Assembly (NCBI GenBank): GCA_024137785.1
Contig: JAHRHZ010000048.1
Location: 10,448,168-10,512,167 of the forward strand
Reading direction: 5' to 3'
Length of the DNA stretch: 64,000 nucleotides
From: Ginglymostoma cirratum
Lineage: Eukaryota
How positions within the stretch are numbered: the first letter of the stretch is position 1; the number at the start of each line of letters is the position of its first letter. Below the pieces are notes generated by a model. The model was not told the DNA's origin, searched no databases, and saw only the letters and a list, made by a program, of their open reading frames with translations. Positions 12,199 through 48,430 of this stretch are shown piece after piece. Both the position numbers and the translations under genes were made by a program.

Positions 12199-12403
12199 AG
12201 GCAACGCAGTGTGGAGCTGAAGGAACACAGCAGGTAAGGCAGCATCAGAGGAGCAGGAAAGTTGATGTTTCAGCTTGGGACCCCATTTCTGAAGAAGGGT
12301 CCCAACCCGAAACATCAACTTCCCTGCTCCTCTGATGCTGTCTGACCTGCTGTGTTGCTCCAACTCCACACTGTATTGTCTCTGACTCCAGCATCTGCAG
12401 TTC
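12199..12403. mobile_element. Palindromic mini-element built from two inverted PLE 3' tails
   Basis: Arms about 12199-12283 and 12297-12381 are near-perfect reverse complements; the right arm starts within a hammerhead-like core. Confidence 0.8.
12289..12316 (+). ncRNA. Minimal type I hammerhead ribozyme-like motif
   Basis: CUGAAGA-A-GGGU(CCCA)ACCC-GAAA-CA-UC. Core and stem II are intact; stem I is weak here. Confidence 0.6.
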
Positions 12404-14437
12404 GTGCTACATCTGCAAATGTACATGGCGCTTTTTCATATCATTAACCAGAGTAGGGCCAAGAACTGTACAGCCCCTATGTTCATCAGATGTTTTTCAG
12501 CAGTCACATAATTGGCTCCTTTTCATCCATGTATTTCAATGCACGGTATTCCATCTAAATTTCCCAGGGTCTTGGAAGCTGTGCTGGTGCCTGGCACAAG
12601 TGGTGATAGTGTCAGAGGGCATACTGAGATTCTGGCTTTCATGCAGGGACACTAGTTGAGTTAACAGTCTGTTCTTTCAGTCCTAGCAAAAGTTATCACA
12701 ATGCAGCTTCTAATAAGCATCTTTAAGCCCTCCTCTTATTGCAGTATATTTTATGTGAAGCTACTGCAGTTGATTGAGTGCTTCTATGACATTCACACAG
12801 TAGGGTATAGCTATCCGCCTTACTCATTATGGTAATGTCCGTGAGCTCAGGGGAGGGCTCCAGCATCACTGGCCCTCTCTCCCCTGATGCTCTCAATTTC
12901 AATTATTTTCAGGGAGGTCTGGCCAAAAGCAGTCAATGGCTTAAATTGCTTAGGACCACCTCCTGTTTTGGACTGTTTGTTCCTATTAAAAACCAACTTT
13001 TCTGCAAGCAGGAGTGAAAGTACATGGCGGACCGTCAATATTACCCGAGTGCACATTGAATGTACATACACAGGGATATATTACATGCTAGAGATAAAGG
13101 ATATAAAGGCTAATAACATCTCCATCTAGGAACTTAGTTTATAGAGATCACTGAACAGAAAATTAGAGATCTGATCACCTTCATTTCCATCCATTCAAAT
13201 TAAAGAATGGAAAATCTCAGCCTGTAGACCCATGATTGCTAATCAGCATTTCTCTAAATTCAGCTCCTCACTGGGAGTTTATAATCTGGGATCTAACCTT
13301 CTCTATTCTCTATGGAAAGCCCTTTCAGAAATTGTTGTAACGCACACAAATTACAATGAATGCATGTGCAACTTGCATCCAAAACATAAAGCTGAAATGC
13401 AAACAGTTGAAACAAAGTATTGCTTGTCCTGATTCTACATTGGCAGAATTTCACCCAGGTAACCTACTGTGGCTGTTCAGTATCTTCCAGCATTAAGGGA
13501 TTAAACTATTCACAGAGATGATAATTTGTAAGCGTACATATTGTAGCTGTTTGTTATGTAGAGCTCTGCTGCTGGCGTACCTTAGCAAATTTGACACCTT
13601 CCCCATCTCTTTACATCTCCTTGTATGCCTGTCGCAATAACTATTTCTCAGATGAGTGACCATACAATATCTTCACCTTTCCAAGAGGCATCCAATGCTG
13701 GGTACATAAACATCACATTCATTACTGGTCATGCTCACTTCCACACTATTTTGGTTAGTTAGCATGTACTGTAGTCACTTCAGCACTTAAATCACATTTC
13801 ACAATTGTGTGGATTATAACACTTGCCGTGTTGACTGGCTTGCTGTACGCCTGCTTAAAACACATATTTAAGTGCACCAATTGAAACAGAAAATATATAA
13901 TTTGTTGATTCTATGGAATCTTGCTAACTCAAAAGTTATTCCCATGTAATCCTTCTAAGGGATAACAACAATTTCCAGACTATGCTATTTCTATCGTTTC
14001 ACATTAAACGAATGGACTCACATTTTGACAATGTTCTATTCAAACTGGCTACCAGCAGGATAGAATGCAATCCAGCTAGTGCTCCTGCAAACCACATTCA
14101 CATTTTCTGGTTTACTGTGTTTAAAATGCTAAATACTAGTTAACAGTATGGAGTCCACTTCCTTGACTTATTGTGGTTTCTTTACTCACTGTACTATTGT
14201 TTTTTTCCCATAGCTGTTGTAAATTGTTGTTTATTGCACAAACAATCATATTTTGTGATTAATGTCTTTGATGTTGCTTGTATCTGTCAGAGTCATATTT
14301 TACTATTAACATACTTTACTGCAATTTTTGTGATTTTAATAAATAAAATTATGTATTGATTAATGTTTCATCATGATAAATGAGAGATAGTAATCTGTAG
14401 TTTTAAGTTTGATTGAACATTAAGTTTCAGACATAGC

Positions 14438-14565
14438 TCTAAGAACACAGAACTTCAGAGCAGCAGGCCATTTGGCCTTTTCAGTTCTGTTCCATTATTC
14501 AATACGATCATGGCTGATCCGGTGTGGTCTCAGCCCCACTTTCCTGCCTATCCGCATAGCCCTGA
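14438..14565 (-). mobile_element. CR1 3' tail fragment
   Basis: Reverse complement of the tail seen at 25700-25840 (gatcagccatgatcgtattgaat...aaatggcct). Confidence 0.7.
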
Positions 14566-15182
14566 GTGCCTGGACAAAGTAAAGTAGATGCTAAACATTG
14601 ATGTCCTGAAGGCATGTGATGTTGTCTATGGAAAACCCACCATACATGTGCCAATCACTTTGCTGCTTGCACTGCCTGGGAATCATGTAAATTTGCAAGA
14701 TGATGACTGAATCAATTCAGTGCATTTTAAATTCATTTCTTCACTGAAACTTTATTCTATAAAGGTCTTTCATTCTGAAGGCAAAGAACAACATAGACCA
14801 TCATACGAAAGTTGTAGAAATCTTGTGAGAAAACCAGGAAGGAACTTCTCAACCTCAAAACCAAAAGGTTCCATTTTACAACCAAATATTTAACAGTGAG
14901 ACGAGATTGTCACTCGTGAGCAGTGAAAGACTGATTGCGAGCTTCTTTTGACATCTTTTAATACAGATTGCACGATACACATTGTTCTCCTGCCCATAAG
15001 CATCAGCAGCTTTTTCACCAAAACTGAGTGACTTCTAACTAATTCATAATTAGATTAAAACCTTGCAGAATGCACATTTTCTAAACAAAGCTTTGCTTAG
15101 TGCTGTGGCCATTTTACTTTTTCTTTCAAGCGGTCGCTCTGCAGCTAGAGTCCTTTGACTATTTTGTTGCTCTGAACAATGG

Positions 15183-15285
15183 CAACAGCAATTTGCATTT
15201 GCTCACTACCTTTAACATAACTCAATGTCCTAAGGCACTTACAAAAGCATTATTGGATGAAATTTTACACTGGTTTGCATAAGTG
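15183..15285 (-). mobile_element. L2 LINE 3' tail fragment
   Basis: caatttgcatttg..cctttaacata..tgtcctaaggcacttaca resembles the L2 3' end also seen at 51868-51960. Confidence 0.5.
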
Positions 15286-15611
15286 ATTGGCACGTTCACA
15301 GATGTTGGGCTGAACTTTCCCATTTTTAGTTGAAGCATTCTGTTGAGAAAGATTCATGGTGCCACATCCATCTTGGCTTATGGTGACTTTTCGCGAGCAG
15401 TCTTTCACTATCTATCTTATTAATTGTGTGACTGGACTCTTCCATGCCCTTCTTGCACAATTATGAGGTTGGAGAAGTGGTAGTTCTTGCTGCTGCCAAG
15501 ACTTCCTGGTGTTCATACTGCCAGCGCTGTATTTAAATCTCAACTACTTCAAATGCTAGAAGTCAGGAGTTGCCCCTATCTTTGTGGTGTTCATCAATTA
15601 TCTCTGAGGAC

Positions 15612-15797
15612 ATGGTTCAGAAAGTAAGGCTTGCTCTCTGCTTCTTAGACCTAGAGGTGCCCATGAACAAAGTGTTGGAGAGGCGGGCAGACATTTTTCC
15701 CTATGATGGTCGCAAGATCCACCAGATCCAGCTAGCTTAGGTCGACATAATGAACTGGGTGAGCACAGTGTCCCAGGCTCGAAGTAACTCCCAGAAG
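15612..15797 (+). pseudogene. Decayed Myb/SANT-like DNA-binding exon of a Harbinger element (NAIF1/MSANTD-like)
   Basis: MVQKVRLALCFLDLEVPMNKVLERRADIFPYDGRKIHQIQLA*VDIMNWVSTVSQARSNSQK followed by gtaagt donor; the stop sits where the conserved Trp (AW) is expected; GGGCTGAACTTT end motif upstream at about 15307. Confidence 0.6.
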
Positions 15798-16599
15798 GTA
15801 AGTGACACCACTTCCTCTCTGCCATTTCATACTCACAAGCCCATCACTCACTTGAACTCGGCCACTACTCAAAACATTGTACAAGGGTGCATTGACAACA
15901 ACTCTCTCTATTGCTTGCATCATATCAATACCATCACTCTTAACCACTTCATCCTCCCAAACTGCTAGCCTTTCAACTTCCTACTCACTCACTGAGGACA
16001 CCTCTCCACTTCTCCTGCTGCTGCATCACCACTAATTGCTTTTCAATTCACTCCCAGCATACACAATCCACTCTTTCTCTTAAAAGTTTGGCCTGAAGAA
16101 CTGAACGTGTCCCAACCCCGGACTACAAGGACATGGATCCCCAGATCAAGCTTTTGACTGACAATTACTGTGAATCTGGATTGAAATCAGAACAGCCTGT
16201 GACTGACTGTAGTCCCCTTGACTCCACTATTTGATGGCTAAACTCTGTCTTTCAGGCATGACCATTAGCTTGAAGCAGGTGCAATTGTGCTTGTTACAAA
16301 GGCTGCTGGATAAGCTGTAGGTGAAAAATTGAAGTAACCCAGTGCCACACAGTAACATATCCATCTCCATGACTGTTCAGTTTTCCCCACTATAACAGGC
16401 TAGCTGCTTCTCCCGCTATATGAAATAAAATGTAAGGCATTGAAGCTGGCAGCCTCCAAGTAAGTGCAAAGTAAGGAGCACTTAGAAAGCAAGCTGAGTA
16501 ATGATATAATTTAATAACTTAATTCCTTTATTTTTCTAGTTTAAATTAAGAAGGACTTTAATGTAAACTATTACCTCATTTATTTATTTTTCTACTTAT

Positions 16600-16795
16600 T
16601 CTGTGAAGGTAACACTACTTTTTAACTCAGCTTCTCTTACTTCTTGGTACCTGAGTTTTTTGTACTGAAGTACCTTTGTACCTAAGATGGCGCTGTGTGT
16701 AGCGACGTTATGCACTATTCACTGTACTCCCATACTTGAGTACATGAGGCAATTAAATCTAAACCTAAATCTAAATGCCATAAGATGCATCATCT
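16600..16795 (+). mobile_element. Non-LTR 3' UTR fragment with (CTAAAT)n-like tail, possibly Rex1/Babar-like
   Basis: gtacctaagatggcgc...ttgagtacatgaggcaattaaa then tctaaa repeats; homologous copy on the minus strand at 50318-50458. Confidence 0.5.
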
Positions 16796-17244
16796 AAAGA
16801 ATCCCTGCATATAAAGTGGCCTGGGAGAAGCATACAGGTCTTAGGTATCCCCAAGCTCCAAAGTAAAGAGTTGATGTTCTGAAATGGTGTGTGAGTTGGT
16901 TCAAAAACAGCCATAGTAATGTGGTGAGGCTGATGGCTTTTGGATACCAACTTGTAGGGATAACAGGTCAGGGAAGATAGCAGCACTGCTAGTTTCTTAG
17001 GGAAAGAGAGGAGACTTGTAAATGAGTCAGAAATGAGGCTAGTTGGGCTGAGACGCAAATGCATGAAAATTATTATTTGTGAGATCCTGAAGTCACTGCT
17101 TAAAGTTCAAGAGGAATTTGTTGTTGACATCTAGAGTCTGCTTTTACACATCCTCACAATATTTTCCCAGTTTTCTTACATTGCCCTCATCAGTCCAGAG
17201 AGGGAAACATTCCACCAGTTAACATCGATGACGGAATGCTCATA

Positions 17245-17475
17245 ATCTTAGCCAAAGAGGCAGGTTGTAGGTTGCATCTTAAAGGAAGAGAGAAAAGTAT
17301 TGAGACAGAGAGGTTTAGAGAAGAAATTCTAGAACTTAGGATTTTGCAGCTGAAAGGCTGAATATGATTGACTGATTGAAATTGTGTAAATATAAGCTGC
17401 CAGAATTTGAAGAATGCAGAGATCTCAGGTGTTTGCAAGACTACAAGAAGTTGCAGAGATGGAGAGGAAAGAACT
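17245..17475 (-). mobile_element. L2 LINE ORF2 3' fragment
   Basis: Purine-rich tract cttaaaggaagagag..gagaggtttag..gcagctgaaagg..ccagaatttgaag..gcagagatctc, collinear with 52000-52200. Confidence 0.65.
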
Positions 17476-19422
17476 TCAAGGTCATAGAGCCTCTCCCAAC
17501 TTTTTGTGCATATAGGTAAAGCATAAATGTAGACTTACATCAAACATCTGTACAAGGAAAATGCCATAGACAATTTACTAACATTATGATTTTCATTACA
17601 AGGGAACCTTGTAGTGCTTCTAGATATTTTCTAATTTTGTCTGTTGTTACTTGATCCCTAATGAGTTAATATAAATTATCCCTAAAGGTGCAGTATACCC
17701 ATTGGAACATAGCACTCCTTTCAAATCAATGAGGAGCACATTGGTTTGATTTTTGAGAGGATTTTAGTAATGCCTTTTTTTTCTAGCAACTTGATACAAC
17801 TTATTTTGCCAGCAGCAGAGTATTTGTCCGTATACTTCTTGAGAGAAAGGCAAATGTATCCATTCAATGGGGATGTATGCCATATTTCCATTCTTTGTGG
17901 GCAGGTAGTATTAGGAAATTGGTCTTTATGGGCTGAACTTTTGCTTTTACATTGGAAGTACAGATGTGAGGAAACAGCTTACACCCTTATCTCTCATCAC
18001 TCACTCTCCATGCCCCATCCATACCAATTCATATCGTCTCATGTTCCCTCCCATTCCCATGACATCTCATACCCTTATGTCAATCCATTCCTCACTACCT
18101 TTTCCCAGGATCCCTTGTATTTCCCTTTCTCCCTATTCCCTTTTACACACACTTCACTTTCCTCATACCCCCATGCCAACCTAGCTTCTGTACATACCTT
18201 GTTCCTATGACATCATGTGCCAACCTGTTCTCGTCGATCCATATCATTGTTACTTTACACTTTTGGTGTCAACTTAGTGCAAACTTATGCCAACACATGC
18301 CCCCACCCACCATTCCTGGCCATTAATAATTTCCACACCAGTTCAACCTGTCTCCACCATAGGCAGACTGAAAGAGCCATGCTGAAATGAAAATAATACA
18401 AAGCTCTTGTATATATTACAAAGATTGCTTTTTTTTTAAAAGAACTCTCATTCATATAAGAGCTCATTCAATAAATGTAAATTTCTTCAAGCATTTAATT
18501 CCTTATAAAAACAAGCATTTGATTCAACTACTTAATCTTTTAATAAAAGCAATCATTTGTATTCATCGACTCACATCAAATACTTTAAAACTGTGTATTG
18601 CTGTCATCAGTACTTCCTATGTATGCATTCCTCCAGGACTTGCGTGATGTAGAGTGGATGAGGACAGCCACTTTGTCATCTAACCAGAAGAGTCTCTTGT
18701 CATAAACATGATATAGTTTATTAAATCTCTATAATTATTTACACGTAATGAGGATTTAGTATACATTATATCCTGGTGTTAGGTCTGATGCCTTCAAGAT
18801 TATCAGTTCCATTCCCAGTCGTCAGGATATCATTGCAGGAGGTGGCGCTAATGGTACTCATTCAGTGTTAACACTTCCAGACCCTTTCAGACCCATATTC
18901 AACAATAACCACTCAAAGCTGTCATGCAAACTGTGAACCAATATGCACCCCAATGTACGAATGATTGGTTCCAGAATCAGTCATGTAGCATAAATCCTAT
19001 AATGAGAGCACTCAGGTCTATATCAATAACCTGAGGACTTTTTTAGAATATTTCCTCATTTTTACACTTCTTTTAATTTAAAAGGCAGGAGATTTAAATT
19101 CCTCAAAACTTAACAGTTTCTCAGTGGTTATCCATTTTTTATGCACATTCACATTTACACTTCCTAATTCCAATGTAAATCTTACGATTCCAATCAAATC
19201 CCCAGACTTCTTCAAAGGGTAACCTACTTTACAAATATCTTGACAACTTTAGATCTTTTCCTCAATGGTCTATTACCCAATGTTTCAGGTGTCCCATTAA
19301 CAAAGTCTGAACCCATATGAAGGCAGCTGCAGTTTTCAGTGTGCAGCTGCCTCCCTGAGCTATATCTATGCAAACTACAATCCTGAGTTTGTAGACATGC
19401 TCACTGAGCCAATGGGTTTGAT

Positions 19423-19464
19423 TGCAAATGTTTCATCATCCTGCTAGGTAACATTGTCAGTGCA
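19423..19464 (-). ncRNA. Decayed minimal hammerhead-like motif in the inverted pseudo-LTR
   Basis: UGCA-CUGACAA-U-GUUACC(UAGCAG)GAUGAU-GAAA-CA-UU-UGCA; G8 mutated. Confidence 0.5.
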
Positions 19465-19731
19465 CCTCCAGTGAAATGTCTCACTACACACGGACAACAA
19501 GGGACACAAATTCGACTGGGACATCACATCGATAATCACACAAGCCAAACAGAGACACGCCAGGGAATTCCTGGAGGCCTGGTGTTCCAAACAGAACTCC
19601 ATCAACAAACACATTGAATTCGACCCTGTGTACAAACCACTAAGAAACAAAACTGAAAGTGATACCAATCACCCCAGCAAACTGAGGCATATAAATAACA
19701 AGCGGGACAGAACATTGACATTTCACTGGAA

Positions 19732-19774
19732 GCACATTGACGATGTTACATAGCAGGGTGACAAAACGTTTGCA
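19732..19774 (+). ncRNA. Decayed minimal hammerhead-like motif in the Penelope 3' UTR
   Basis: UUGACGA-U-GUUACA(UAGCAG)GGUGAC-AAAA-CG-UU-UGCA; C3 and G12 mutated, ACGU palindrome kept. Confidence 0.5.
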
Positions 19775-20401
19775 ACTAAACCCACCGGTTCGGCAAGCAA
19801 GTCTACAACTTCATCCACAACCCGAGTTACAAATCTTCTCAAAAACTTTAAACTACAACCCTTCCATGTTATTCCCACCCCATTTCTGGTAAATTAAAAT
19901 GTGGTTACTTAGTCCAGAGGCAGGACTTCAGATTAGGGCTGTGACGCCACTTTAGCTAAACTAGAAACCTGTTCTGTCCTCATGTAATCTCAATTCTAAA
20001 AATGTCTTGAGGAGAGAGGAAACGGTTTTCACCTCATAAACAACCATGCTACTACTGAAAATTATTGAAAACCAGCCTCTGCATGCAAAAAATTATAATC
20101 TTCCATTTCCATCTTGACCAGCCGGATGCCTTGGCCAGACACTGTTCCTTCCAGGACACCCTCCTCCACTCCTCCATTTCCACACACTCCCATGACACCT
20201 TCCCATGCAATCGCAGAATGTGTAACTCCAGTCCATTAACCTTCACCCACCTCACCATCCAAGTCTCCGGGGCATACCTTCCATTTGAAATCCAGTTGCC
20301 TGCTGCTTCAAGACATCACCATGTTCCCTGACCAACATTCCTATTGCAGGCCTGCTTGCAGCGATCCAGCAAGCCTCAGTGCAGGCTCAAAGACCGCCAT
20401 C

Positions 20402-21093
20402 TTTGAAGTTCACGCCACATATAGACAGGGTGGTTAAAAAGACATTTGGCACGCTTGCCTTCGTTGCTCAGTCCTTTGAGTACAGGAGTTGGGAAGTCAA
20501 GTTGAAGTTGTACAGGACATTAGTGAGGCTGAACAGAACATTGGTAAGGCCTCTTCTGGAATTCTGTGTCCAGTTTTGGTCACCCAGTCTTAGGAAGGAT
20601 ATTATCAAGCTGGAGAGGGTTCGGGATGTTGCAGGTATGGAAGGTTTGAGTTATAAAGAAAGGTTGGATACGCTTAGACTTTTTTCACTGGAGTGTAGGA
20701 GGTTGAGAAACAACCTGATAGAAGTTCATAAAATGATGAGGGGTATAGATAGAGTTAATGGTAGTTATCTTTTCCTTAGAGTGGGAGATTTCAAGATTAG
20801 GGAGCATATTTTTAAAGTGAGGGGAGAGAGATTTAAACAAGACATAATGGGCAATTTTTTTACTCAGAAGGTGGTTTGCGTATGGAAGAAATGTCCTGAG
20901 GAAGTGGTGGATGTAGGTACAGTTACAACATTTAAAAGACATTTAGATAAGTACATGAATAAGAAAGGTTTGGAGGGATATGGGCAAGGAGCAGGGAGAT
21001 GGGACTAGTTTAGTTTGGAATTATGCTTGGCATGGACTGGTTGGACCAATGGATCTGTTTCCTTGCTGTTTGACTCTACGACTCCATGACTCT
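20402..21093 (+). mobile_element. CR1 LINE 3' fragment nested in the PLE
   Basis: Long open frame with VRPLLEFCVQFWSPSLRKDIIKLERV, LFSLECRRLRNNLIEVHKMMRG and FFTQKVVCVWKKCP..FKRHLDKYM; ends in a (GACTCTAT)-like microsatellite tail. Confidence 0.93.
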
Positions 21094-21445
21094 GTTTTAT
21101 TTTCCCCTTTGGAACCTTGCAGCCCCAAAGACTCAACATCAAGTTCAACAACTCTGATTTCATCCTTCCATGTTTTTTACCCATTCCCACAACCTGGTCC
21201 TGTCAAGACATGGGTTGCATTCAGCATAGCCTACCAATTTTCTCTTACTCCCAGCTGACATTATCATTTATGCAGCTTCTCTGCTGCCCTGGCCTACTAT
21301 CAATAATTCCTTTGTCTGCTTATCCCTGTCATATATCTCTTTCTCTGTGCTCCATCTCCAACAATCTGCTCACCCCTACCCCAATATCTCACAAGGTCCC
21401 CAACCTAGTCTTCAACCTAAGTACTATTTTTCTCCTGGCTGCTAT

Positions 21446-21484
21446 CAATTCTGATGAAGAGTCTCTGGACTCAAAAGGTTAACT
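21446..21484 (+). ncRNA. Decayed minimal hammerhead-like motif at the Neptune-like PLE 3' end
   Basis: CUGAUGA-A-GAGUC(UCUG)GACUC-AAAA-GG-UU-AACU; perfect 5-bp stem II, G12 mutated. Confidence 0.5.
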
Positions 21485-22926
21485 CTGCTTTCTCCCCACA
21501 GAAGTTGCCAGACTTCTGCCAGAGTTTTGCCAGCAATTTCTGTTTTAACTTCCAAAACTGATAGGCAGATTGACATGGTGATGCATGAACCAAAAAGTAT
21601 AATATAAGACATTCTGGATTTCCCCAAACAAGCAATGCTCCAGAAACAATTTCTGATCTTTACTGAGGTCAGATTTTTTCAGCTGCTGCTTTGAATTTTT
21701 ATGATCCTGTAGCACTTTATATCTAGAAATATCTACATTTTAATTGCATCGAAATATGTTTGTGGATTTGGATATTTTTCCGAGTCTTCCCGCTTTGTAC
21801 ATAAAATCCAATTTAGTTCAAGCTCAACTTTTAACCCAGCATGCAATTACTTTAACATTGAAAAATTCAGTCAGGCAAATGTTTATTCATTTTATCTTAA
21901 CCTTTAAAAGATACACTGATAAGTGTGACAATGGTCTGCTTAGGAGTGACGCAGTAAAGCTATTGTACCATCCTTGGGCTGCTTGGTATGTGCAGAGTTC
22001 ACCTGCAAGGTCAGTGGAGCTGGTGGCAGTATCCTTATATTGATTTTTAGTATACAATACTCGTCTCCTTGAGATGTCTATATATCTTCCATGGACAGTG
22101 CAAGGGGATTATGCAGCTTTGGAAGTTTTAGACACAGTTTCTATCAACACTGTTGTTACAAATAAGAGTAATCATTTTCAAAGTGCCATTGATAGACAAT
22201 AAAGTCACCATCGATCAAGAGTATGAACAATTGGAAAAGATTTCAGAGCTGTGCATACTGACATTAAATCCTTTGCATTCTCTTTGATAGTTACTTGGTT
22301 CTTTTCTTCTGTCCTTTACTTCAGCTTTACTTCTGAAAGATAAATATTTCCATTTATTCTGAACACTGTGCTACAGATTCTACTGTTCCTGACATGATAA
22401 TTCACTGCGCCAAAAGCACCAGCTGACTCTCTGTGGAACTGCTCAGACTGGGTTTGACATACGTGCAGTTTCATGTCATGTAATGTTCTTTTAAATGACA
22501 ATGGTTCTTCTCCAGAGGCATTGCATTCAGCCAAACAATGTGCAGTTTTGAAAGACAGTGACATTGTCTTGTATCATAGAATCATAAAATCGGGCAGCAC
22601 ACAACAAATTCACTTAGCCCATCACATCTGGGTCATTGCTCTGAAAAAGCTACAAATTAGACACAGTCCAAGCTATTTCCACAAAGTCTGCAATTTCTAT
22701 TTCTCCACACCCCCACAACCCCACAACCCGTTAAGTACAGCTCCAAATCCTTTTAAGAGTTAAGACCATATCGGCTGGAATCCAGATTACCACATGATAG
22801 GCAATGTATTAATCCAATAGAAAGTTGTCAGTGTTGTCAGTGTGCTGACAACACATTCCTTGAGGACCACAAGTATGATAGTTATAGAAAAGCAACGTAA
22901 TTCAGATGTTGCAGATATGAAATTTT

Positions 22927-23635
22927 GTTTGTGTGTGCTGAGATGGTTACTATTGAAGTTCAGTACCTGGTCTGTGTGTGTGGCTTTTCGGTGTACTTTT
23001 GTTTGCAGTTCCCCATTTGTCTTGCGCTCCACCATGACGTCCAGGAATGGGAGTTGTTTGTTCTTCTCCTCCTCTCTGGTGAATTTTATTCCGGTGGGGG
23101 TGTTGTTTATGAGTTTGTGCCTCTCTTCTAATTTGGTCTGTTTAATGATGACAAAGGTGTCGTCTACGTAGCGTATCCATAGTTTAGGTTGGATTTGCGG
23201 AAGGGCAGTCCTTTCCAGTCTTTGCATCACTGTTTCTGCTATGAGTCCGGAGATAGGCGATCCCATGGGTGTCCTATTGATTTGCTCGTATGTTTGGCTG
23301 TTGAAGGTGAAGTGGGTGGTCAGGCGTCATTCCAGTAGTTTAAGCAGGTTGTCCTTGGAGATGGTTTCACTGGGGTCGTGTTCTTGTTCAAGTAGTGTTG
23401 TCATTGTTTCCCTTACTAGTGGTATGTCTATTGACGTGAATAGGGTGGTGGCATCAAACGATATCATGGTCTCTTTGTCCTCTATCTTTATGTCTTTGAT
23501 GGAGTTGAGGAATTCTTGGGCTGAGTGGATAGAGTGGGGTGACTTGTTGACTAGGTGCTTGAGTCTTCTTTGTAGTTTTCAGGCTAATCTGTGCGATGGA
23601 CTGTCTGGTAGGGAGACTATGGGTCTGAGGGGGAC
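22927..23635 (-). mobile_element. Penelope-clade PLE reverse transcriptase segment (inverted 5' part of the insertion)
   Basis: VPLRPIVS..SFDATTLFTSID..YEQINRTPMGSPISGLIAE..WIRYVDDTF..LPFLDVMV..HRKATHT..NHLSTHK; two in-frame stops. Confidence 0.93.
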
Positions 23636-24467
23636 AAATGAAGCTGCATGCGAACAGTATTTAAAAGGGCAACAACACACTGCAGCAACACAGAACTATG
23701 CCAAAAGGAAGCAGAATACCTCTTCCAAGTGTTCAAGGATAATGGATATCCATTATATCCAAAGAACTGGGTCAGGAGATGCCTACAGGAACAGCATCAA
23801 AAAGATTCTACATGCCCTGACACACTCATCGCACTACCCTACATCAGGAACACGTCGGAACTCACCTCAAGTCTTCTACAGCTGCTGGGCATCAGAGTGG
23901 CACACAAACCCACATACGACAAGTGCTCACCCGAACTAAAGACCCACTCCCTGCCATGGACAAGACCAATGTCGTCTACAAAATCCCCTGCAGAGACTGC
24001 AAAAAACACTACATCGGACAAACAGGAAGGAAATTAACAACAAGAGTACATGAACACCAACTGGCTACAAAAAGACACGACCAATACGCACTCATCTCAA
24101 TCCTCATGGACGAGGAGAACCACAACTTCGACTGGGACAACACCAAGATCCTGGGATAGGCTAGGCAGAGACAAGCACTAGAATTCCTGGAAGTATGGCA
24201 CTCCACGAAGCAGGCTATTAATAAACACATTGAACTCGACCCCATATACATTCCACTACGGAGGAAACCCGGAAGTGAGGCAATCCATCGCGATGGACCC
24301 CAGAGTTTTAAAGCCAGGTGGGAAAACACACCAACGCTTCATCAGAGGCTGCACTGAGGATGTTACCAAGCACGGTAATGAAACATTTGCGGAACAACAA
24401 ACCAGCTCGGTGAGCCAACCAACCTCAACACGCACAACCCGGGCTACAAATCTACTCCAAAACCTTA
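23634..24467 (+). mobile_element. Penelope-clade PLE thumb, GIY-YIG endonuclease and 3' UTR (forward part of the same insertion)
   Basis: SCMRTVFKRATTHCS..NGYP..LPYIRNTSE, then NVVYKIPCRDCKKHYIGQTGRKLTTRVHEH..FDWDNTKIL..EFLEVWHS; frameshift and stops present. Confidence 0.93.
24349..24392 (+). ncRNA. Minimal type I hammerhead ribozyme-like motif in the Penelope 3' UTR
   Basis: Stem I CUGCA/UGCGG, core CUGAGGA (24354-24360), stem II GUUACC(AAGCAC)GGUAAU, GAAA (24380-24383), then CA-UU. Confidence 0.65.
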
Positions 24468-24765: not shown

Positions 24766-24892
24766 GAAAATACAGTGAATGCTAGAAATCTGAAAAAAAC
24801 AGAAAGTTGGAAACTTAGCATGTCTAGCAACACCAGTGGAAAGTGAAACAGTTAACATTTTGACTCCAGCATTGGCAGTTCTTACTGTCTCT
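24766..24892. mobile_element. Fused, decayed PLE-tail fragments in opposite orientations
   Basis: 24766-24860 resembles 46700-46810 (minus); tgactccagcattggcagttc resembles 12383-12403 (plus). Confidence 0.55.
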
Positions 24893-25189
24893 GATTGAGT
24901 CCTGCTTTTGTCTCCAAACGGTAAGATTGCTACAGTTGGGCCTCCCAAAAGTCAGAAATTTACAGATTAGCTTCTGTTCATAAATCACTGCCCCTTCCCA
25001 ACATAGACTTATAAATAGTTGTTTCAAATGTCTGTGGCAAAGTGCCACCTTTTCACCTTTGACACCTCATCTCAGCTGAAGCTAAGAAGACACAGAAGAT
25101 AGTTAATAATTAACATGATTACTTACTCCAAGTTTTCTCCAGAGAAGACAGGAGCAACACATCCTCATTTAAACGTAATATGTAGGTAG

Positions 25190-25310: not shown

Positions 25311-25449
25311 AGGGAAATGTGCAACACCAAAGCTTGTTTGCCAATAGTTTGAGACACTATCCATTTTGATAAAATTGGACAAAGTAGCTGTAGACCATGA
25401 CAAAGCCTTTAAATGTATATTAACACATTAAAGAATAGAACTAATTTTT

Positions 25450-25840
25450 TATCGAGACTTATAAAATTCTAACAGGACTCGACAGGGTAGATACAGGGAG
25501 GATGTTCCTGATTATTGGTGTTTCCAGAACCAGGGGTCACAGTCTGATAGTTTGGGATAGACCTTTTGGGACGCAGATGAAGAGGCATTTCTTCACCCAA
25601 AGAGCGGTGAGCCTGTGGAATTCATTACCACAGGAAGTAGATGATGCCAAAACATTGAATGTATTCAAGAGACAGCTAGAAATAGCACTGGGGTTGAATG
25701 GGATTAAAGGTTATGGGAGACAGCAGTACTGAGCTATTAAGTTGGATGATCAACCATGATCATGATGAATGGTGGAAACTGCTCGAAGGGTTGAATGGAC
25801 TCATCCTGCTCCTATGTTATATGTTTCTATGTTTCTATGA
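25450..25840 (+). mobile_element. CR1 LINE 3' end
   Basis: IETYKILTGLDRVD..SRTRGHSL..FFTQRAVSLWNSLPQ..FKRQLE; 3' UTR with (TATGTTTC)n tail. Confidence 0.92.
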
Positions 25841-26880: not shown

Positions 26881-27889
26881 CCTCAAAGAAGAGAAGCTAG
26901 AATTCTTACTTCAGGAAGTTAAAGTTTGAAGGATTTTGTGGCTGAAACTGGTCCTCAAATTTGCAAATTTGTTAGTCTCTGCAGGAATCATAACATTGCC
27001 TACTTACATTAAAGTAAGTGGAAAGTAAAATCAGGTGCAACGTAAAACAAGTTAGTGATCCAACCTCAAATATTTTCTGCCAAATGGATCAGGATAAAGT
27101 TACATTTCTGCTTTCAGGCAGTTTACAAAAGATATCTGTTCATAAACACTACTGCAGGAAAAAACAGGATTTTGTCTAATGAGGGAAAAAAGACGTGAAT
27201 TTACTTTGATCAGAACAGAATGATATCTTGTTAAACATCTTACTGTAAAGGTGTGATAACTTGCGGCCACAACAGAAATTTGTTGCAACATGTAACAAAT
27301 GAACAGATTTCTGCAATACTTAATTGTTTAACATAAGCTATCAGTTAGGGTACATCTGCAGCTAGGTGGGACTTCAAGATGTCCCGGGATGCCTTGTCCA
27401 ATTGATTCAGGTAGCTTTTCTAACCTCGGATCATTTACAGGTGAGAGGCTGACTCTCTGGCCTCTGCTGGGAATTTATGCCCATCTGTAGCAGTGATTTG
27501 CACAAACAAGCCTCGTGGGCCTGACATAGCAGAAGAAAAGAAACAACTGGCAAATTGCCTGATTAAATGAGGTGCTTGCCATAAAAAATATGTACTTTTG
27601 GCAGTGGGCCCTATGCATGAGAGAACCAGGCCTGGCCTCTCTTCATTTTTCTCCTCAAAATCCCTTTCACCAACCTCTGAATGATGGGCTCCAGAGTTAC
27701 ACATGGAGAAGAATATAAATTTCAGAGATAAAAGTAATATTTAACTTCGACTCATGGGAGTTACTCATCCATAGGAAGAGGTGCTATGTCTTGTCTTTCC
27801 TGATTGTTGAAGAAGCTCTTAAAAGTTTTTTTCGTCAGAAGTCAATGCACTGACAATTAAATTAATTTAACCCTGCAACTGACATTTCT

Positions 27890-28190
27890 TTTATTCAGTC
27901 TTAGAATCTGGGCATTGTTGCCTGGGTAAGCATTTATTGCCTATCTCTGCTTGCTCTTCAGAAAGTGGTTTTGAGCTGCCTTCTTGAACTGCTGTCGTCC
28001 ATTTGTTATAGGTACACCCATAATGCTGTTCAGGAGAGAATTTAAGCAGTCTGACCCAGTGATACTGAAGGAACAGCAATGTATTTCCAAGTCAAGGTGG
28101 TGCGAGTCTTGGAGGGGAACTTTCAGGAGCTGGTGACCCCACACATATCTGCTGCTCTTATCCTTCTACATGGCAGTGGTCCTAGGTTTG
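27890..28190 (-). mobile_element. CR1/L2-group LINE 3' end (second family; SINE partner)
   Basis: SFSITGSDCLNSLLNSIMGVPITNGRQQFKKAAQNHFLK plus short 3' UTR; homologous to 59150-59385. Confidence 0.8.
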
Positions 28191-28741
28191 TAAATTTCTT
28201 TTCCAAATGGTTCTATGGAGATTTCAACAGGCATTTAAATCATGAAATTAGCTGAAAACAAAACCTATTTGCTATGTACGTCATTTTTCTTTTGTAACAG
28301 TTGGCACACACCGCCCCATATCTTCTTGAACAGAATGATACAAAGAACTGTCAATTAAAGGGAATTATATCTTTATTTGAATGTTAGCTACTAAGCATAT
28401 GCAGAAGGAGCAATGTCATAGTGAAATCAGATTATGTGGAACCGGAGCTTAGGTCTGTATGGTTCCGACTAAGATGTCTTTTCTTACCATCTTCTATTCG
28501 GTCTTGCCTGTTATTTCAGTATTGGATACTGTGATGGTCATTAACAATGGGAACTTATGGTATGGGACTGTTGGTGAATGGTATTACATTTGAGTTAGTT
28601 CTTCATGGATAGGTCAGGCAGAAAGCAGCTACCTCAGTTGTTTCCCTGCTTCCTCTCTCTTGTCCAGTCTCCTCCTCCTCATCTTTGATGCTCTTGATTC
28701 TTCACTATTTATCACACAGCTGGTGTGCTTTTTGTAATCCA

Positions 28742-29050
28742 GTATGGGATGAGGGCATTGCTGGCTAAGCCACAATTTATTACCTATCCCTAACTGCCCA
28801 TAACAGTCAACCACATTGCTGTGGAGTCACATGTAGGCCAGAGCAGTTTCGGATGAGAGTTTCCTTCCACAAAAGGACATTAGTGAAACAAATGGGTTTT
28901 TATGACAATTGACGATGGATTCATAGTCATCATTAGACTCTTCATTCCAGATTTTCATTTAATTCAAATTGCACAATCTGCTATTGTGGTATTCGAAGCT
29001 GCGGACCCTGGACATTACCTGGGTGTCTGATTTAACAGCTCAGCAATAAT
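28742..29050 (-). mobile_element. tRNA-derived SINE, near full length
   Basis: Collinear with 62412-62755; B-box-like CTTCGAATAC on the minus strand near 28990. Confidence 0.85.
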
Positions 29051-35409: not shown

Positions 35410-35570
35410 TACAAAAACAGAAGTTGCTGGAAAAGCTCAGCAGGTCTAGCAACATCTGTGAAGAAAAATCAGATTTAGTGTTTCAGGTCCGGTAATGCTT
35501 CCTCAGAACTAATGACGGCCTTAGTTAAATGTTGCTGATTTACAGCATCCACAGTTCTTTTGGGTTTCTT
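35410..35570. mobile_element. PLE tail with decayed hammerhead (minus) plus terminal tail piece (plus)
   Basis: Minus strand 35510 to 35475 reads AGUU-CUGAGGA..GGACCU-GAAAC; ctgatttacagcatccacag is the reverse complement of the 46715-46732 type end. Confidence 0.65.
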
Positions 35571-35769
35571 TTGTTTTAGTTTCGGATTGGTCCCTGGCTT
35601 TCAATTACATGACGTTGAATATATTGTTAGTTCTGCAGTCTACCCAGGACAACCAGAGTGCTTATATTCCTGTGCACTATTTTGATCATTAACACCAAAT
35701 CCCTAATGTCAAGACCATGACTTATACCAAGATCATGGTTTTCTGTCTGTTAATGTTTTGTTAGCTGTG

Positions 35770-36205
35770 TTTGAGTGATAGCACTTGAGCCTAAAAGTGA
35801 GATCAAGTCTCACTCTAAAGAGCTGAGGACACAATCTAGACTGACACTTCAGTGCAGCACAGAAGGCCTGTGTCAATGTCAGATATACCATCTTTTGGAT
35901 GAGATGCTAAACCAATACTCTATCTGTCCCACAGCTGACTGTAAAACTCCTATGACGTTATGTGAAGTAAATCCACGCAGTTCATTTTCAGTCATGTGGC
36001 CAATATTTACCCGTCAAACAAAAACACTAAAACAGATAATTTACTTCTTAACACAGTAAAGTTTGTGAGAGCTCGCTGTGCTCAATTTGGCTGCCATTAT
36101 TCCTAAATTACAAGTGTAACTGCACTTCAAAAGTGCTTAAGTGACTATGAAAGACTTTAGGAATTCCTGAGGTTTTGAAGAGAACTATTTAAATGCCAGC
36201 CTATT
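35770..36205 (+). mobile_element. DeuSINE-type SINE, near full length, old
   Basis: Decayed tRNA-like head, then gactgacacttcagtgcagcac..ttttggatgagatgctaaacc..tggccaatatttac..cactaaaacagat..gctgtgctcaatttggctgcc..cacttcaaaag..cctgaggt tail. Confidence 0.75.
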
Positions 36206-42200: not shown

Positions 42201-45059
42201 GTTAATCTTATTGCACCTTACTAACATTTTGTATGACTCAACTGAAAGAAACAGCAAATTTATGAGATTATTTATGCATGATGCATTGCTTTGAAGTAAG
42301 TTCCGCACATTGTTTTTCAACTGTGCAGATAAACAAATATTAAAAATTAATATTTCCATTTTCACTTCTAATTTAGTTATGTTTGTACTGAACGAAAGAT
42401 ACAAAAAATGTGTTGACATATATGTGGATTTCATAAAACCTCAAGTTAGAACACTATATAATACACTTACTTAAGTTTTAATATGTGGTTTGGATAGTTC
42501 ATAAAACATAAATTATTAACTAAAATAGTATGAACAGCTTTAATTTTGTTCAAAAGGAGCAAACGCAAAACTATTTTTTTACCTATAGTGGTAATCACTG
42601 CACTATGCCAAATTAAATAACAATTTCATGTTACATCAATGATTCAGAGTCTTCAACGTAATCTATTCACAGTATTCCAGGACTTTATGCCATGCTACTC
42701 ATGCAATCAGTTTGCAAGATAGCTTCCTAATTTCGAATTGCTAGGAGTGTTGAGTATCACAAAGGTTTAAGGAAGAATGGGGTGACTTAATTTGTGTCGG
42801 GAGGGTTTTTCTTCAATTCTTTCGCAACATTTTCAGATGTAGTTAAAATTAAAGTTTTTTTCAGAACTGACTGAGAAACATCAACAATCCTTTGGTGCCC
42901 ATCCCTGTGATAGTGTCCATTTCCAATCTGACATGAATGTGCAGTGATCACCTATGGAGCAAAACATAACTTACATAAAATTTCAAAAGTAAATCTGATC
43001 TCACATCAACAGTTCATACATTAACATTAACTAACATTTAACAAGTCACAATATCCTTTCTGGAACTGACCAGTTAAATAAGACCTGCCTTTGACCACAG
43101 TTCTCTTCAGGTTATATGATATGGTATAATCCCGACATTATTGCTACAAAAGTTAATGTTACAGTCAACACACAATTTTTAGGATGTTTATAATATAGAA
43201 AAAGACAAATAAGATACTATAACTCCTCAAACTTAAATTATTGGTGGAACATTTTTATAAAGTGCTCCAAAAGTTTACAAAGAAAATGCTTAGATTAAAT
43301 TATCTATCAATTGTTTCAGACAAACACAAATATGTTGACAATTTAAGCTGAGCATACATATGGGGGCTAAAATGTCATCCGATCACAATTATTCTAATGC
43401 AGCTCATTTTTGGAACTGCAAATGATTTGTTCATAAGTTCCTTGTTTTCAAGATTTTTTCCATACACAATCTGCTATGATAAATATTGTACACTTTATTT
43501 AAGTATCAATTAAATATTTCTCACTAGTTTATTAGATCTCTATTGATTACAATAGAAGAAGGAATTTAACTTGCTGCCACTTTATATCATACATAAAATA
43601 TTGTCCAACAACAGTGTTAACATCAAATCAATGTAATTGATAACTGAAACATATGTAATTATATTACACTGAAAACACTATATTTAAAATAGAAATGTGA
43701 ATTCTCTCTGATGGTTGCTCACCAATTGTGACCACTTTACTGAATTGTGTGATAACCACTTTCAGTAGGACTCACTTGGAAAGAGTTTAATAAGAGTTAT
43801 TGTGAATAACCCTTGAACAACGAGTAAAGGGAAAGAATCCTTTCTTCTGCTTTTGGCCCTTTATTTACAGCGAAGGAAAACCTGTACCGGGGAGTGAATG
43901 AAATTTAAAAACATTGAATAAGACCTCCAATTTATTTGTCTATTTCATATGTTTTATTTACATAATATATGTATGAATTTCTGTGTGTGATTTAAGTAAA
44001 CATCACAGTTACGTACATTTATAATTCTACTTTCAACAGATGAAGTTGGATAAAACATATCAAAATCATGGAGACTTGAAGAAAATGTTAAATAGCGTCT
44101 ACATATAATGTTTAAACAACAATGTTTCACTAACATTTTTATTAACGAAGAAGAGTTTTACACCTAGAAATATTTTACAGCAAACAACAGTGAGATTTAT
44201 TGACAAATTGTCTTTCATCGGTTTGCCTGCAGTGTGCCTGCTTCATGGGCCAATTGCATTGAGTTGAGGACTGTGGTGAGCAGATAGATAGAAGCTTAAG
44301 TCAAATGTGATCTGATGAGCAAGTTAAGCCGAGTATATCCCCCCCCCACGACAAAATTAAAAGCCTTTGCCGCAATTTTTGTCCTAATCGCATACGTGAT
44401 GCCATAATTGGTGATTGCCTTTAAAAAAAACCTACAGCTGCTGCTTGCAGTTCTCTGTCTGTCAGTGAGCAGCAGGCCATTTTATTTGATTTTTTTGAAA
44501 GGAAGTTCATGTTGGACAGCTGCATTCTGTTCCCCTCAACCCCTGTCACAAATGTTCTGCATAAATGTAAGTGATATGATGACTGGACATGGTGTCTCTT
44601 ATAATCATTGGTAATGATTATCTGGTTTTTGTGTAATGTGACACATGTGCAGTGAACGAGGCATAGGCAACATCTGGCATGGATTCAGCAATCTGAGGGG
44701 TTGGAGTCATTTGAATATGCATAGGGATTTGTTATTTTGCCTGCTTAGTGCCAGCTCGCCTAAGTCACAGCACAGCCCTGTGTTTGTATGAAGTATGAAA
44801 CAGGCCCATAAAGCTCCATTAAAGCTTGTTAAGCATTTTACCCATCGCTCCCTGTCTTAATGTCAGGCATATTCCTTATTTTACAGTTTCATCATTCAGA
44901 GTAAGCTTTACCAATGACCAGGCATCATTGCAGTCCTCTGACATTGGTCATATTGCTGACATGATCAGTATGAGAAGACAGCATTGTGGACCCCTGATCT
45001 GGTTGCTGACTGTCTCTGGTATTAGCTAACCCTGCCTCTTCTTTAACAGCAGAGACCGA

Positions 45060-45098
45060 ACATACACATATACATGTATCCATACATATACATATATA
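45060..45098. repeat. Imperfect (CATA)n microsatellite
   Basis: catacacatatacatgtatccatacatatacatatata. Confidence 0.6.
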
Positions 45099-46699
45099 AT
45101 CTGTTGTGCAGTGATGTGAAAGCTCTTTTAATCTTATTTGCTCTGCTGTATCCATTGCATTTCTAAAATATCTGAGGGAAGCTCTGACCTAAAGGTGTTA
45201 CAGCCATTTAAACTAGAGATCCTATGCTGTGCCCTTCATACTGCTGCTGGCTGAGTCTTTCACTAGGCCCAAGTGACAGAATTGACAATTTGGCAAGGCC
45301 CCAAATAAATGCAGATCTGGAAGAAAAACGTGTCTTGCAAATGTCATGTATGTCCTTGTGATCTGAAATTTTTGCAAGCAAAGATGGTAAAAAAGAGAAT
45401 GAATGTAGAAAGGGACAAATTTTAGTGAGGGATATAGAGCAAGAAGCAAACTATCAAACACCCCCGAAAAAAGTGTGGGGGGTGTGCAGTAGAATTAAGA
45501 GATGGGAGAAACTGTGACAGACACTTGAGAATATTGGATAGCTTTTATTTTAGGAAGTTTTTACACTCAACGACAATCTGGGACTGACCCACATTCAACA
45601 GCCACGATAGAAACTTCTAGAAAAGTATATTTCTTGTGGAAGGGAGATTGTTGTGACTGTGGTTTCTCATTTTTTTAATCATGGAAAGCCCTTTGTCAAT
45701 TGAGAACAAATGCATATGTGTCAGTTCTCCCAAATGATGTCATCAGCTTCACATGTTAGTCATAAATGAATGTCACTTTTGAGCTGTTTTCTGGCCCTTG
45801 GTTACTGACTGCAGTTCAGACTGAATCACTGTGAACTCTGATTGACCTATGGCCTCTATTGGTTGTTCAAAGTGTTGTTGCGAGAAAAAAACTATGATGG
45901 TTAATTCCATGTAACTTCAGAAGACGTTAAGGACTATTAGAGAGCTTACAGGGTGAAATGGATCGATTTATCTCCCCTAACCCACTTCAAAAGTACAAAT
46001 TCATCGCAAGATTGAGTTAAAGTGCTAGTTAAATGAATTAAAACATTTCCAAGAATAAACAGCACAGCTACGTAAATAATAAACAAGTTTCTGCTGTAAA
46101 GAATTGTATCTCTTCTTTTTAGAAATGATTACACGTATCTCATAGTTCCTGAATAATCATCTGCGCTCTTACCAAGCAGCATATCTTCCAACATCTCATA
46201 AAAAAAATCTGTTGGTACTTATTATAAAATTTAGATACTTCAACAATTTGCAAATTTGAGGTTTACTGGAGCAGACTAACTGGAACAACTAGTACCTAAC
46301 TGTGGTGAATAATGATGAGAAAGGTTGAGAATGTGCTTGAATTCTAGGCAAAAAAGTGTAGCCTCCTCTGTAACAGCCCTCCTCAGAGATTCAAAATCAG
46401 TTTATGTCCAGCCTCTGGTGGTTTTGTGGTTGGTATTCATTCAATGGGTCTAGTCAGTGATGATATTCAATATTGGTCTATATTCCCAGTGCTCACTGTA
46501 GAGTTGTGATTTTTGAAGTCTGAGCCTGGAAAACACAATTATCTTTCACCTCTTTGATCATTGTGTTATGCATTATAGCCAGCAGTTTAGAATTTTGCAC
46601 AACCTGCAAAGGATAAAAAATGATATGTTTAGTCTCATTGAAAATAACAAGATGAGATGTAGAACCAAGCCAAAACTGTCAGGGCAAAAGTCTTATATA

Positions 46700-46832
46700 A
46701 AATCCAAAAAAAGTTGCGGATGCTGTAAATCAGAAACAAAAGCAGAAATTGTTGGAAAAGCTCAGCAGGTCTGGGACCATCTGTAGAAAGACATCAGTAT
46801 TAATGTTTCAGGTCCAGTGACCCTTCCTCAGG
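46700..46832 (-). mobile_element. Solo PLE 3' tail beginning at a hammerhead-like motif
   Basis: Minus strand reads CUGAGGA-A-GGGUC(ACUG)GACCU-GAAA-CA-UU, then the tail homologous to 21480-21550 and 35410-35480. Confidence 0.75.
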
Positions 46833-48285
46833 ACAAAAGACTTTCCTTTTGTGATGACTGTAAAGAATCTTAAACAATTTTCGTTTGGATAGTTTGACTC
46901 AGTGCTTTAACGAACATTCTTCCAAAATGTAATGTAACAATACAATTGGTAATTTTCGCAAAACATGATCTGTGAAGATGTGTAGTGTGCGGAGCAAAGC
47001 AATGCTTCACTGATGCACTGAATAATGTCCTTCTGAAGACTAGGTTAAAGTACAGTGTAGAAAGAGCTTTTGCATTGCACCTAAACTAGTAGGCTTGGTC
47101 AGGAGGTTCTTGATGCTGACACTAAATGCAAAAGGTGGAAAATCCTCCATTCTCCAGCATTGCAATCTTTTATTTTGATGTGATTAATTTAGCTGCTAGT
47201 GAGGGAGCTGATTTCTCTTTTTTAAATAAAACATTAGCCTCGGCCATTCTGCTTTTTCAAGTGAACAGGTTTGGTGGAGATTTCTGCGACAAAACAAAGA
47301 ATCATTTTCGGGCTGAAATGGTAAACTTCCAGAATGGTGATCTGAACTCCCAGGTAGATAATAAATAAGTTGTTGGCTTAAGTAATTTTTGTATACCAAC
47401 GATAAATCATTAGGGTTTTCAGCAGCATCAAATTCTCAGGACTAAAAGGTTAATAGATTTTATTCCATTCTTTTTAGCTAAGATTTATGTAACAAAACAG
47501 AGGCACTGTCCATCTGCACAAAATAGATATATTACATTTAACAACTGTGTGTCATTGTTAATGGCCTTTTGCTGAATTTTAATCTGGCTATTTTTTGCAG
47601 CTCCCAACATTTACAAAAGGTCCAGGTTCTGTAATATTAGAAAATTAATTTCTTTGGTAAAGTTAAAATGATTCACTCTGCAACAAATGTTGCCATATTA
47701 ATAACAGTATTCATTAGAAAACACCAATGCTTTTAATTCTTGAATTTGTAATCCTTTTGGGTCTTTTGTCAAGCTATTTCTAATAGTACTGAACAAAGGA
47801 TATACTTGTTTCCAAGAACTTTGAGTCTACAGAAAACCCACACATGCTGACTGCTATTTGCATTTCCGATCACCACCCCACATTAAAGACTGAGATCATC
47901 AACTCACTGGTGGACAGAGTGCTTTTTTTCAGGGGATGTAAACCTGTTAGTGAAGCAGGGGCTGCAAAAAATCCGGGAGATTTGTGGGATCACACTTAAT
48001 CTGAGGAGCAGATTTATTTACCTTTATCAAAATGAAATTGTGTTACCAGCCTAATAAAGCTCACTTTGGACACGTGTTTGGGTGAGAGTGGACTTGATCA
48101 AAGCCATGTATGACAGGAGATACTGCTTTAGCTTACTATACCACACACCAGACTTCAACATTGACTGAAGTCAACGGAACTGAATGGGAAGCAGAATGTA
48201 TGATGGGTGACTGATGAAATCCCACCCATTTAACATCCAGACAGGTCCAAATTTAAACCCATGCTTCCTCCGGTTTAGAGCTAGC

Positions 48286-48430
48286 AAGAACTGCAGATGC
48301 TGGAGTCAGAGTCGATACAGTGTGGAGCTGGAAGAACACAGCAGGTGAGGCAGCATCAGAGGAGCAGGAAAGTCAATGTTTCAGGTCTAGAAACCTGACT
48401 TGCTGTGTTTCTCCAGCTCCACACTGTATC
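48286..48430. mobile_element. Palindromic PLE-tail mini-element with central deletion
   Basis: Same family as 12199-12403; gatacagtgtggagctggaagaacacagcaggtgagg pairs with cctgacttgctgtgtttctccagctccacactgtatc. Confidence 0.75.

Follow-up and report, generated by a model that had tools for sequence, protein, structure and literature searches.

Decayed hammerhead motifs in Neptune- and Poseidon-type Penelope-like element ends of Ginglymostoma cirratum, and a possible run-off origin of their short copies

A 64-kb window of the genome of the shark Ginglymostoma cirratum (the whole stretch analysed here, from contig JAHRHZ010000048.1) contains seven motifs derived from the hammerhead ribozyme, and all seven sites are ends of Penelope-like elements (PLEs), four of Neptune type and three of Poseidon type. 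We hold it to be quite probable that these motifs are decayed minimal hammerheads in Neptune and Poseidon terminal repeats (pseudo-long terminal repeats, pLTRs), and that the short Neptune copies are likely run-off cDNAs, ending where an uncut element RNA has its 5′ terminus. Positions are counted in the whole window, on the + or - strand; the first C of CUGA is the reference point of the hammerhead coordinates, from which tail ends and 5′ ends are also numbered.

This reference C lies at 12289(+), 19460(-), 19737(+), 21452(+), 24354(+), 35506(-) and 46831(-). A sequence-only reading of the same DNA had placed motifs at seven positions, all of which exist and are of minimal type I hammerhead origin, the numbers it quoted falling within a few bases of each motif's low end. 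Its description of at least seven motifs with CUGANGA, stem II and GAAAC-NUH was too generous: a loose descriptor (CUGANGA, a 4-bp stem II and GAAAC-NUH) fits only three of the seven, 12289(+), 24354(+) and 46831(-), and returns 0 matches in each of 100 dinucleotide shuffles of the window. The other motifs are damaged, with CUGACAA at 19460, UUGACGA...AAAAC at 19737, AAAAG-GUU for GAAAC-GUH at 21452, and a broken stem II with GAAAC-ACU at 35506. A strict descriptor, which adds G16.2 (the ACGU palindrome), G10.1-C11.1 and 2 bp of helix I to the loose one, is passed by none of the seven, and the ACGU helix III is kept in 0/7. At the level of the families, G16.2 of the palindromic helix III persists in 10/14, 31/39 and 25/50 random copies. 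Because the families keep ACGU while no window motif passes the strict form, the window copies are to be seen as decayed family members. The majority sequences of Neptune families A1, A2 and B and of Poseidon-type family P1 all hold the CUGANGA/GAAA core, stem II and NUH; that of the second Poseidon-type family, P2 (built from 20 query-biased copies), reads AAAAC through CpG decay, although some P2 copies have GAAAC. Rfam gave no hammerhead match anywhere in the window (E<=5), which is the result to be expected of a motif lacking helix III; its microRNA-type matches on a long hairpin, far below the gathering score, were dismissed as hairpin artefacts. The copy at 12196-12414 is predicted to fold into a single long hairpin that buries its motif. 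To judge from sequence, the window copies are probably inactive or nearly so, and the implication that they are working ribozymes is not supported: none keeps helix III, the hairpin hides the motif of 12196-12414, and no tandem partner was seen.

The identity of the elements is given by longer copies. Families A and B account for the short repeats at 12196, 35411, 46697 and 48277, and longer copies of the same ends extend upstream via a pyrimidine-rich untranslated region (UTR) into PLE coding sequence. The upstream frames of loci L041, L049, L054, L059 and L060 carry a C-x4-C-x2-C linker, which is degenerate in the Neptune copy of the window and absent from the P1 frame. A CX2-5CxxC linker between reverse transcriptase (RT) and endonuclease marks Neptune/Nematis (PMC8557442). 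Since Nematis shares this linker, the linker motif is the sole ground for the name Neptune, and the clade names are motif-based, not tree-based; P1 and P2 are called Poseidon-type because neither shows the cysteine linker. Pfam gave no match on five frames, and the closest proteins are shark and ray proteins without names (42-50% identity, three matches). In the P1 copy, broken frames at 22787-24159 match RVT_1 at E=1.1e-6 (29.0 bits, cut-off 29.6) and GIY-YIG at E=0.013 (below cut-off), an RT with a C-terminal GIY-YIG endonuclease upstream of the pLTR, as in an endonuclease-positive (EN+) PLE. The endonuclease lies upstream of the end in 29/30 best P1 relatives, and 7/30 P1 copies (L091-L120) keep an intact core including ACGU. 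Many copies among L091-L120 also carry an inverted endonuclease segment upstream, as does the P1 copy of the window. Two PLE clades are thus present, as the sequence-only reading had proposed, and its view that the short repeats are PLE ends is borne out by the longer copies of identical ends and by the RVT_1/GIY-YIG matches. Of its two coding anchors, 22927-24467 does carry RT fragments and a GIY-YIG remnant; the other, at about 20059-21546, holds linker/endonuclease remnants and matches the L041 Neptune frame (34% over 79 aa, E=2e-7).

The four stem II sequences that had been put forward as evidence of covariation are present, but GACCU and GGUAAU are CpG-decayed forms of the majorities GACCC and GGUAAC. 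Differences among the stem II copies of the window are mostly CpG decay, being C-to-T changes relative to the family majorities. Mismatching CpG cells in the motif amount to 14/56, 19/156 and 79/192 (12-41%), and mismatching non-CpG core cells to 4/140, 3/388 and 29/486 (1-6%). A true two-sided change, G-C to A-U, is seen at the B-type pair 10.2-11.2 (GC 24, AU 8, GU 6 and other 10; 49 distinct rows). The covariation score of 0.192 for 50 B-type copies (47 of 48 listed plus three from the window) is equalled or exceeded in 5/500 shuffles and drops when the partners are slid, but related sequences can reach such scores without selection. The compensatory change at 10.2-11.2 is probably a single subfamily event in the master lineage, and the retention of structure between families fits selection on masters, the copies then decaying. 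A lesser divergence of the core than of the tail was considered as a sign of selection on copies and set aside as unusable, since it is confounded by the alignment having to cross the core and by subfamily mixing.

The short copies, or stubs, are very numerous. A random sample of 140 evenly placed 10-kb stretches (1,400,000 bases, of which 619,493 were unreadable and 780,507 readable) gave 230 profile matches and, once these were merged and score-filtered, 223 Neptune arms (~286 per readable Mb), which extrapolates to roughly 0.7-1.2 million arms in the genome. Within the same readable bases the loose descriptor fits 51 motifs and the strict one 28 (8 shuffles gave 0), or roughly 0.9-2.8 x 10^5 by extrapolation; as intact-looking copies therefore occur outside the window, the window holds older ones. 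The arms have two recurring 3′ ends, near +90-99 and +120-137, ~30-35 nt apart. Head-to-head pairs (palindromes) number 41 in the sample, and 25/41 combine a long with a short arm. A flanking-duplication score of >=9 is reached by 21/41 palindromes (9-18 nt) versus 0/300 shuffled flank pairs, and the joints, which differ from copy to copy, range from microhomology overlap to filler of tens of bases. Such an inverted 5′ copy, one-sided 30-40-nt tail and short duplication are the marks of an EN+ PLE. The stubs represent independent insertions, marked by target-site duplications and by joints that vary, and do not form a short interspersed element (SINE).

The 5′ ends of these arms are concentrated just before the hammerhead. 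After 16/223 arms touching unreadable sequence or an edge had been dropped (leaving n=108 for A and n=99 for B), 35/108 A and 33/99 B arms begin at -6 to -1 before CUGA, whereas only 3 A and 7 B arms begin in the 54 nt from -60 to -7. There is no pile-up above the local background within 2 nt of the predicted cut (A 5/108, 3.2 expected, p=0.22; B 4/99, 4.1 expected, p=0.58). A repeat of the count used tail-only queries blind to the hammerhead, with 30 copies fetched per family (7/30 A copies dropped): starts at -8 to -1 were found in 7/23 usable A and 15/30 B copies, and at the cut site in one of each. Short A copies (n=48) match the upstream consensus at 0.96, 0.85 and 0.79 for -1 to -3, falling to 0.35 or lower at -5 to -7, whereas long A copies (n=33) match it at 0.94-1.0. 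The upstream flanks of the short copies are singletons in 66/139 cases, the others clustering as inverted arms or UTR.

The same spot has the appearance of a promoter. The patterns applied here for the TATA box (TATAWAW) and the initiator (Inr) are textbook motifs. All three Neptune majority sequences (A1, A2 and B) have an Inr-like YYANWYY with its A at -4, and the sole TATA-like site within 200 nt upstream of each lies at -35 (A1, A2) or -35/-33 (B), 29-31 nt before the Inr-like A; TATTTA at -35/-34 is found in 28/33 long A copies. In B and A2 the four bases from -4 are able to pair with the four bases after the cut, so that helix I would start with the RNA's own first base. Short A copies have an extra T at the junction (four T rather than three) in 16/48 cases and long A copies in 1/33 (p=0.0007). 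The extra T, present in both subfamilies, suggests slippage at the end of a template. Among the short A copies, L227, L253, L276 and L279 have a duplication that runs directly into A plus four T. To go by these genomic features, the 5′ pile-up likely marks the start of the element RNA and not the ribozyme cut site. A cap-derived extra G was also sought and rejected, there being no clear excess at -5 (A 7/48, B 8/38).

These observations can be assembled into a copying mechanism. The stubs themselves have the two fixed 3′ ends, the 9-18-nt duplications and the variable central joints. In vitro work on another PLE found nicking of both DNA strands by the protein, with reverse transcription begun from two internal positions of the RNA, so that one long and one short arm would be made; the predominant template there was RNA that had not been cut, and cleavage was protein-assisted (PMC11167929). 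Transcription begins inside the pLTR of tandem PLE copies (PMC2377424, PMC8557442). In the shark, the pile-up spot would be a Pol II start, with the Inr-like A at -4 and the TATA-like box 29-31 nt upstream; the first four RNA bases would make up the 5′ side of helix I, and a capped leader of 32-34 nt would be lost on cleavage. The RT would meet the RNA 5′ end after ~100-135 nt. A jump to the repeat at the RNA 3′ end would then give a long copy, and failure to jump a solo stub or a two-armed palindrome sealed by microhomology. The copies decay thereafter, mainly at CpG, presumably losing activity as they do so. In its strongest form, to which we attach about even odds, the proposal is that Neptune RNA starts from a TATA/Inr promoter exactly at helix I, that the ribozyme is a decapping switch at the extreme 5′ end, and that the stubs, several hundred thousand in number, are 'strong-stop' cDNAs which were made on capped, uncut RNA and whose retrovirus-like jump to the 3′ repeat failed. 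If this were true, the genome would preserve an in vivo record of where PLE RNA starts and of the template jump, the step still missing from the account of how pseudo-LTRs arise.

Several points weigh against this proposal. The Poseidon families, with TATA-like sites at -47 and -48, show no 5′ peak; the P2 arm of the window at 19480 starts at -20, and only 1/20 P2 copies (20/40 listed, mostly long) begins near the predicted start, for which reason the start-site claim is limited to Neptune. The Neptune peak is several bases wide (in A, 17 ends at -3 and 3 at -4; in B, ends scattered between -6 and -1) and does not pin +1, and both TATTTAT and TATAAAC are one base off TATAWAW. The Penelope of D. 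virilis has a TATA-less internal promoter and an intron before the hammerhead (PMC2377424; PMC4209133). No full-length or tandem master was recovered from the loci searched (3 kb or 10 kb each, partly unreadable), and a comparison of 164 flanks showed no copy that went on beyond its tail into sequence common to others, which makes the connection between tail and start of the open reading frame, and the template jump, hypothetical steps. Long copies may be under-counted on account of the unreadable bases and dropped arms, and a clear duplication accompanies only 11/50 solo copies starting at -8 to +7. Finally, the 22 RNA runs consist of contigs, which cannot show starts, and the proposed start rests on genomic sequence. 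Those contigs include the family, with divergence setting in where it does among the genomic copies; they were discarded as start evidence, passenger transcription explaining them.

The alternative that survives best, although we think it unlikely, is that the RT, copying a longer RNA, stalls at the far side of the folded hammerhead or at a C-rich tract behind it, and that the TATA and Inr look is incidental. The peak does coincide with the edge of helix I, is 3-6 nt wide and in family A has a C-run directly upstream, and the RNA start is deduced from the genome only. Family B, however, has the same peak without a C-run, and a polymerase arriving from the 3′ side should stall on entering a structure, not after leaving it. 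Furthermore, both families keep a TATA-like box at promoter distance despite differing UTRs, and the extra T points to an end-of-template event.

It is very improbable, and largely refuted, that the short and palindromic repeats are self-propagating non-autonomous elements (of the SINE, miniature inverted-repeat transposable element (MITE) or retrozyme kind) with masters and working ribozymes of their own. Such an origin would suit the high copy number, and retrozymes do derive from PLE ends (10.64898/2026.07.22.740005). When the A1 palindrome 12196-12414 was searched in its own genome (40 scored of 4339 candidates), the 30 best matches had common outer ends, and the arms of one palindrome share subfamily variants above random pairs (23 vs 16.1, p=0.0015). 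Nevertheless, central joints and arm lengths differ among those 30 best matches and among the 41 random palindromes, the upstream TATA-like box is missing from the stubs, the window shows no tandem arrays of such units, the hairpin buries the motif, and private variants common to both arms are wanting (1 vs 0.7), a test that was uninformative as to whether one or two RNAs gave rise to each palindrome. A-family stubs are nested in B-family stubs at L202, L305 and L055, twice at or near the hammerhead, and the endonuclease may favour pLTR sequence. A claim of chimeric two-family palindromes, which would have shown two RNA templates, was dropped after four had been examined, L202 and L305 being nested insertions and L237 and L304 undecided.

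Least probable of all is a boundary set by a splice acceptor, or by a self-priming antisense RNA whose 3′ end falls there, as proposed for rotifer PLEs (PMC3846280). In its favour are a D. virilis intron that stops at the 5′ margin of helix I (PMC4209133), the CAG of family B at -5 to -3 and the frequency of palindromic joints. Against it, family A has no AG there, the short copies share no upstream exon (66/139 singletons), and priming in vitro is on sense RNA at the tail (PMC11167929).

The arrangement itself is already known, and the additions made here are the TATA/Inr spacing and the extra T at the junction. Minimal type I hammerheads occur in the pLTRs of metazoan PLEs, including fish Xena, Poseidon and Neptune, as dispersed single copies with weak dimer activity (PMC4209133). 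The shark motifs resemble those of that survey in CUGANGA, an extra base before stem II, G10.1-C11.1, the loopless palindromic 15.2-16.2 and a short helix I, and in occurring mostly as single dispersed copies with some opposite-strand pairs; they differ in number (0.9-2.8 x 10^5 by extrapolation, compared with ~4,000 in coelacanth and ~9,000 in Xenopus reported there with another descriptor) and in the decay of the window copies. Head-to-head arms, a one-sided tail and microhomology joints also characterise the EN+ PLE insertion unit, and TATA/Inr-like motifs have been noted in rotifer pLTRs (PMC3846280, PMC8557442), whereas most Neptune insertions in the shark comprise the last 100-135 nt only, with a sharp 5′ boundary just before the hammerhead. 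The closest biochemical parallel is Anolis Poseidon PAc (Frangieh et al. 2024, PMC11167929), where two internal RT starts bound the tail, nicking and extension take place on both strands, the template is mostly uncut RNA and no reads end at the cut site. That work was done in vitro on a Poseidon element and makes no mention of a transcription start, whereas the present evidence is genomic and concerns Neptune families. Non-LTR retrozymes are likewise non-coding, hammerhead-bearing and PLE-derived, but form head-to-tail tandem units, where the shark copies are solos and head-to-head pairs (10.64898/2026.07.22.740005). No head-to-tail retrozyme units were found, the window repeats being dispersed or head-to-head and the random sample holding its 41 head-to-head pairs, with no genome-wide tandem search run. 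In the open-access literature, exclusive of supplements and of Repbase/Dfam, where the families may be deposited, nothing was found that describes Neptune stubs of sharks or run-off at the start site of a PLE.

Within the window, the Neptune-type copies of family A1 are both palindromic. At 12196-12414 (+), a short inverted minus-strand arm (12293 to 12196) is joined to a long arm (12281-12414) with the hammerhead and a 35-nt tail, and the flanking duplication is weak. Its minimal hammerhead (12285-12320, +) has the Inr-like A at 12285, CUGAAGA at 12289, stem II GGGU/ACCC and GAAAC-AUC, with G16.2 lost and a predicted cut after 12316. In the second palindrome (48277-48430, -) the arms start at +17 and +53, the hammerhead having been removed by the inversion joint. 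The family B stub at 35411-35567 (-) shows homology from the A 4 nt before CUGAGGA (35506), with stem II broken, a tail-only inverted arm at 35530-35567 and a 16-nt flanking duplication (14/16 alike). The other B copy (46697-46834, -) is a solo stub with a long tail which starts 3 nt before CUGAGGA (46831); its 16-nt duplication (14/16) overlaps the 5′ end via microhomology. The family B tail (e.g. 46770-46795, -) has a pyrimidine tract ending in CAG and followed by ATG, ~20 nt past the predicted cut, which resembles a splice acceptor. Old remnants without a hammerhead lie at 24779-24893, namely a B-type arm (24779-24869, -) and an A-type tail fragment (24861-24893, +).

The longer Neptune-type copy (20059-21546, +) consists of linker/endonuclease remnants at 20059-20390 and 21090-21150, a 3′ UTR, the decayed hammerhead at 21452 (stem II GAGUC/GACUC, AAAAG-GUU) and a short 3′ end. 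It is split at ~20390-21010 by a long interspersed element (LINE) fragment (20289-21008, +), without Pfam match, which we take to be a CR1-type RT end and which has related pieces at 8565-8609 and 25445-25732. The Poseidon-type P2 copy has an inverted arm at 19384-19480 (-), with its core mutated to CUGACAA at 19460 and its start ~20 nt before the core, and a 3′ end at 19475-19853 (+) comprising the endonuclease end, TATAAATA at 19690-19697, the decayed hammerhead at 19737 and a tail. The Poseidon-type P1 copy (22927-24467, +) has a 5′ inversion, with RT fragments on the minus strand at 22927-23578 and thumb and GIY-YIG on the plus strand at 23642-24357; the hammerhead at 24354 (stem II GUUACC/GGUAAU, GAAAC-AUU) is followed by a tail to 24467, and an 8-nt flanking duplication, identified by eye, borders the copy. 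Both P1 and P2 have a short hairpin-forming sequence 18 to 5 nt before CUGA (e.g. 24336-24349), just upstream of helix I, and the Poseidon families share with Anolis PAc an AUG that overlaps the beginning of stem II. A second dispersed repeat of ~300 nt (71-87% alike; 28732-29037 and 62408-62723, also 7988-8052 and 27889-27953) is unrelated to the hammerhead families and probably a SINE. The 27 window frames scanned for a host gene gave no Pfam match above cut-off.

The motifs are ordinary and mostly dead. What is of value is the stubs, a dense natural archive of a PLE copying process that is only partly worked out. The stubs suggest where the RNA starts, that uncut RNA is the in vivo template, and that cleavage by the hammerhead would take off no more than a short capped leader. 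By extension, many anonymous short repeats and hairpins in the genomes of cartilaginous fish should be annotated as PLE ends, rather than as SINEs, MITEs or microRNA precursors.

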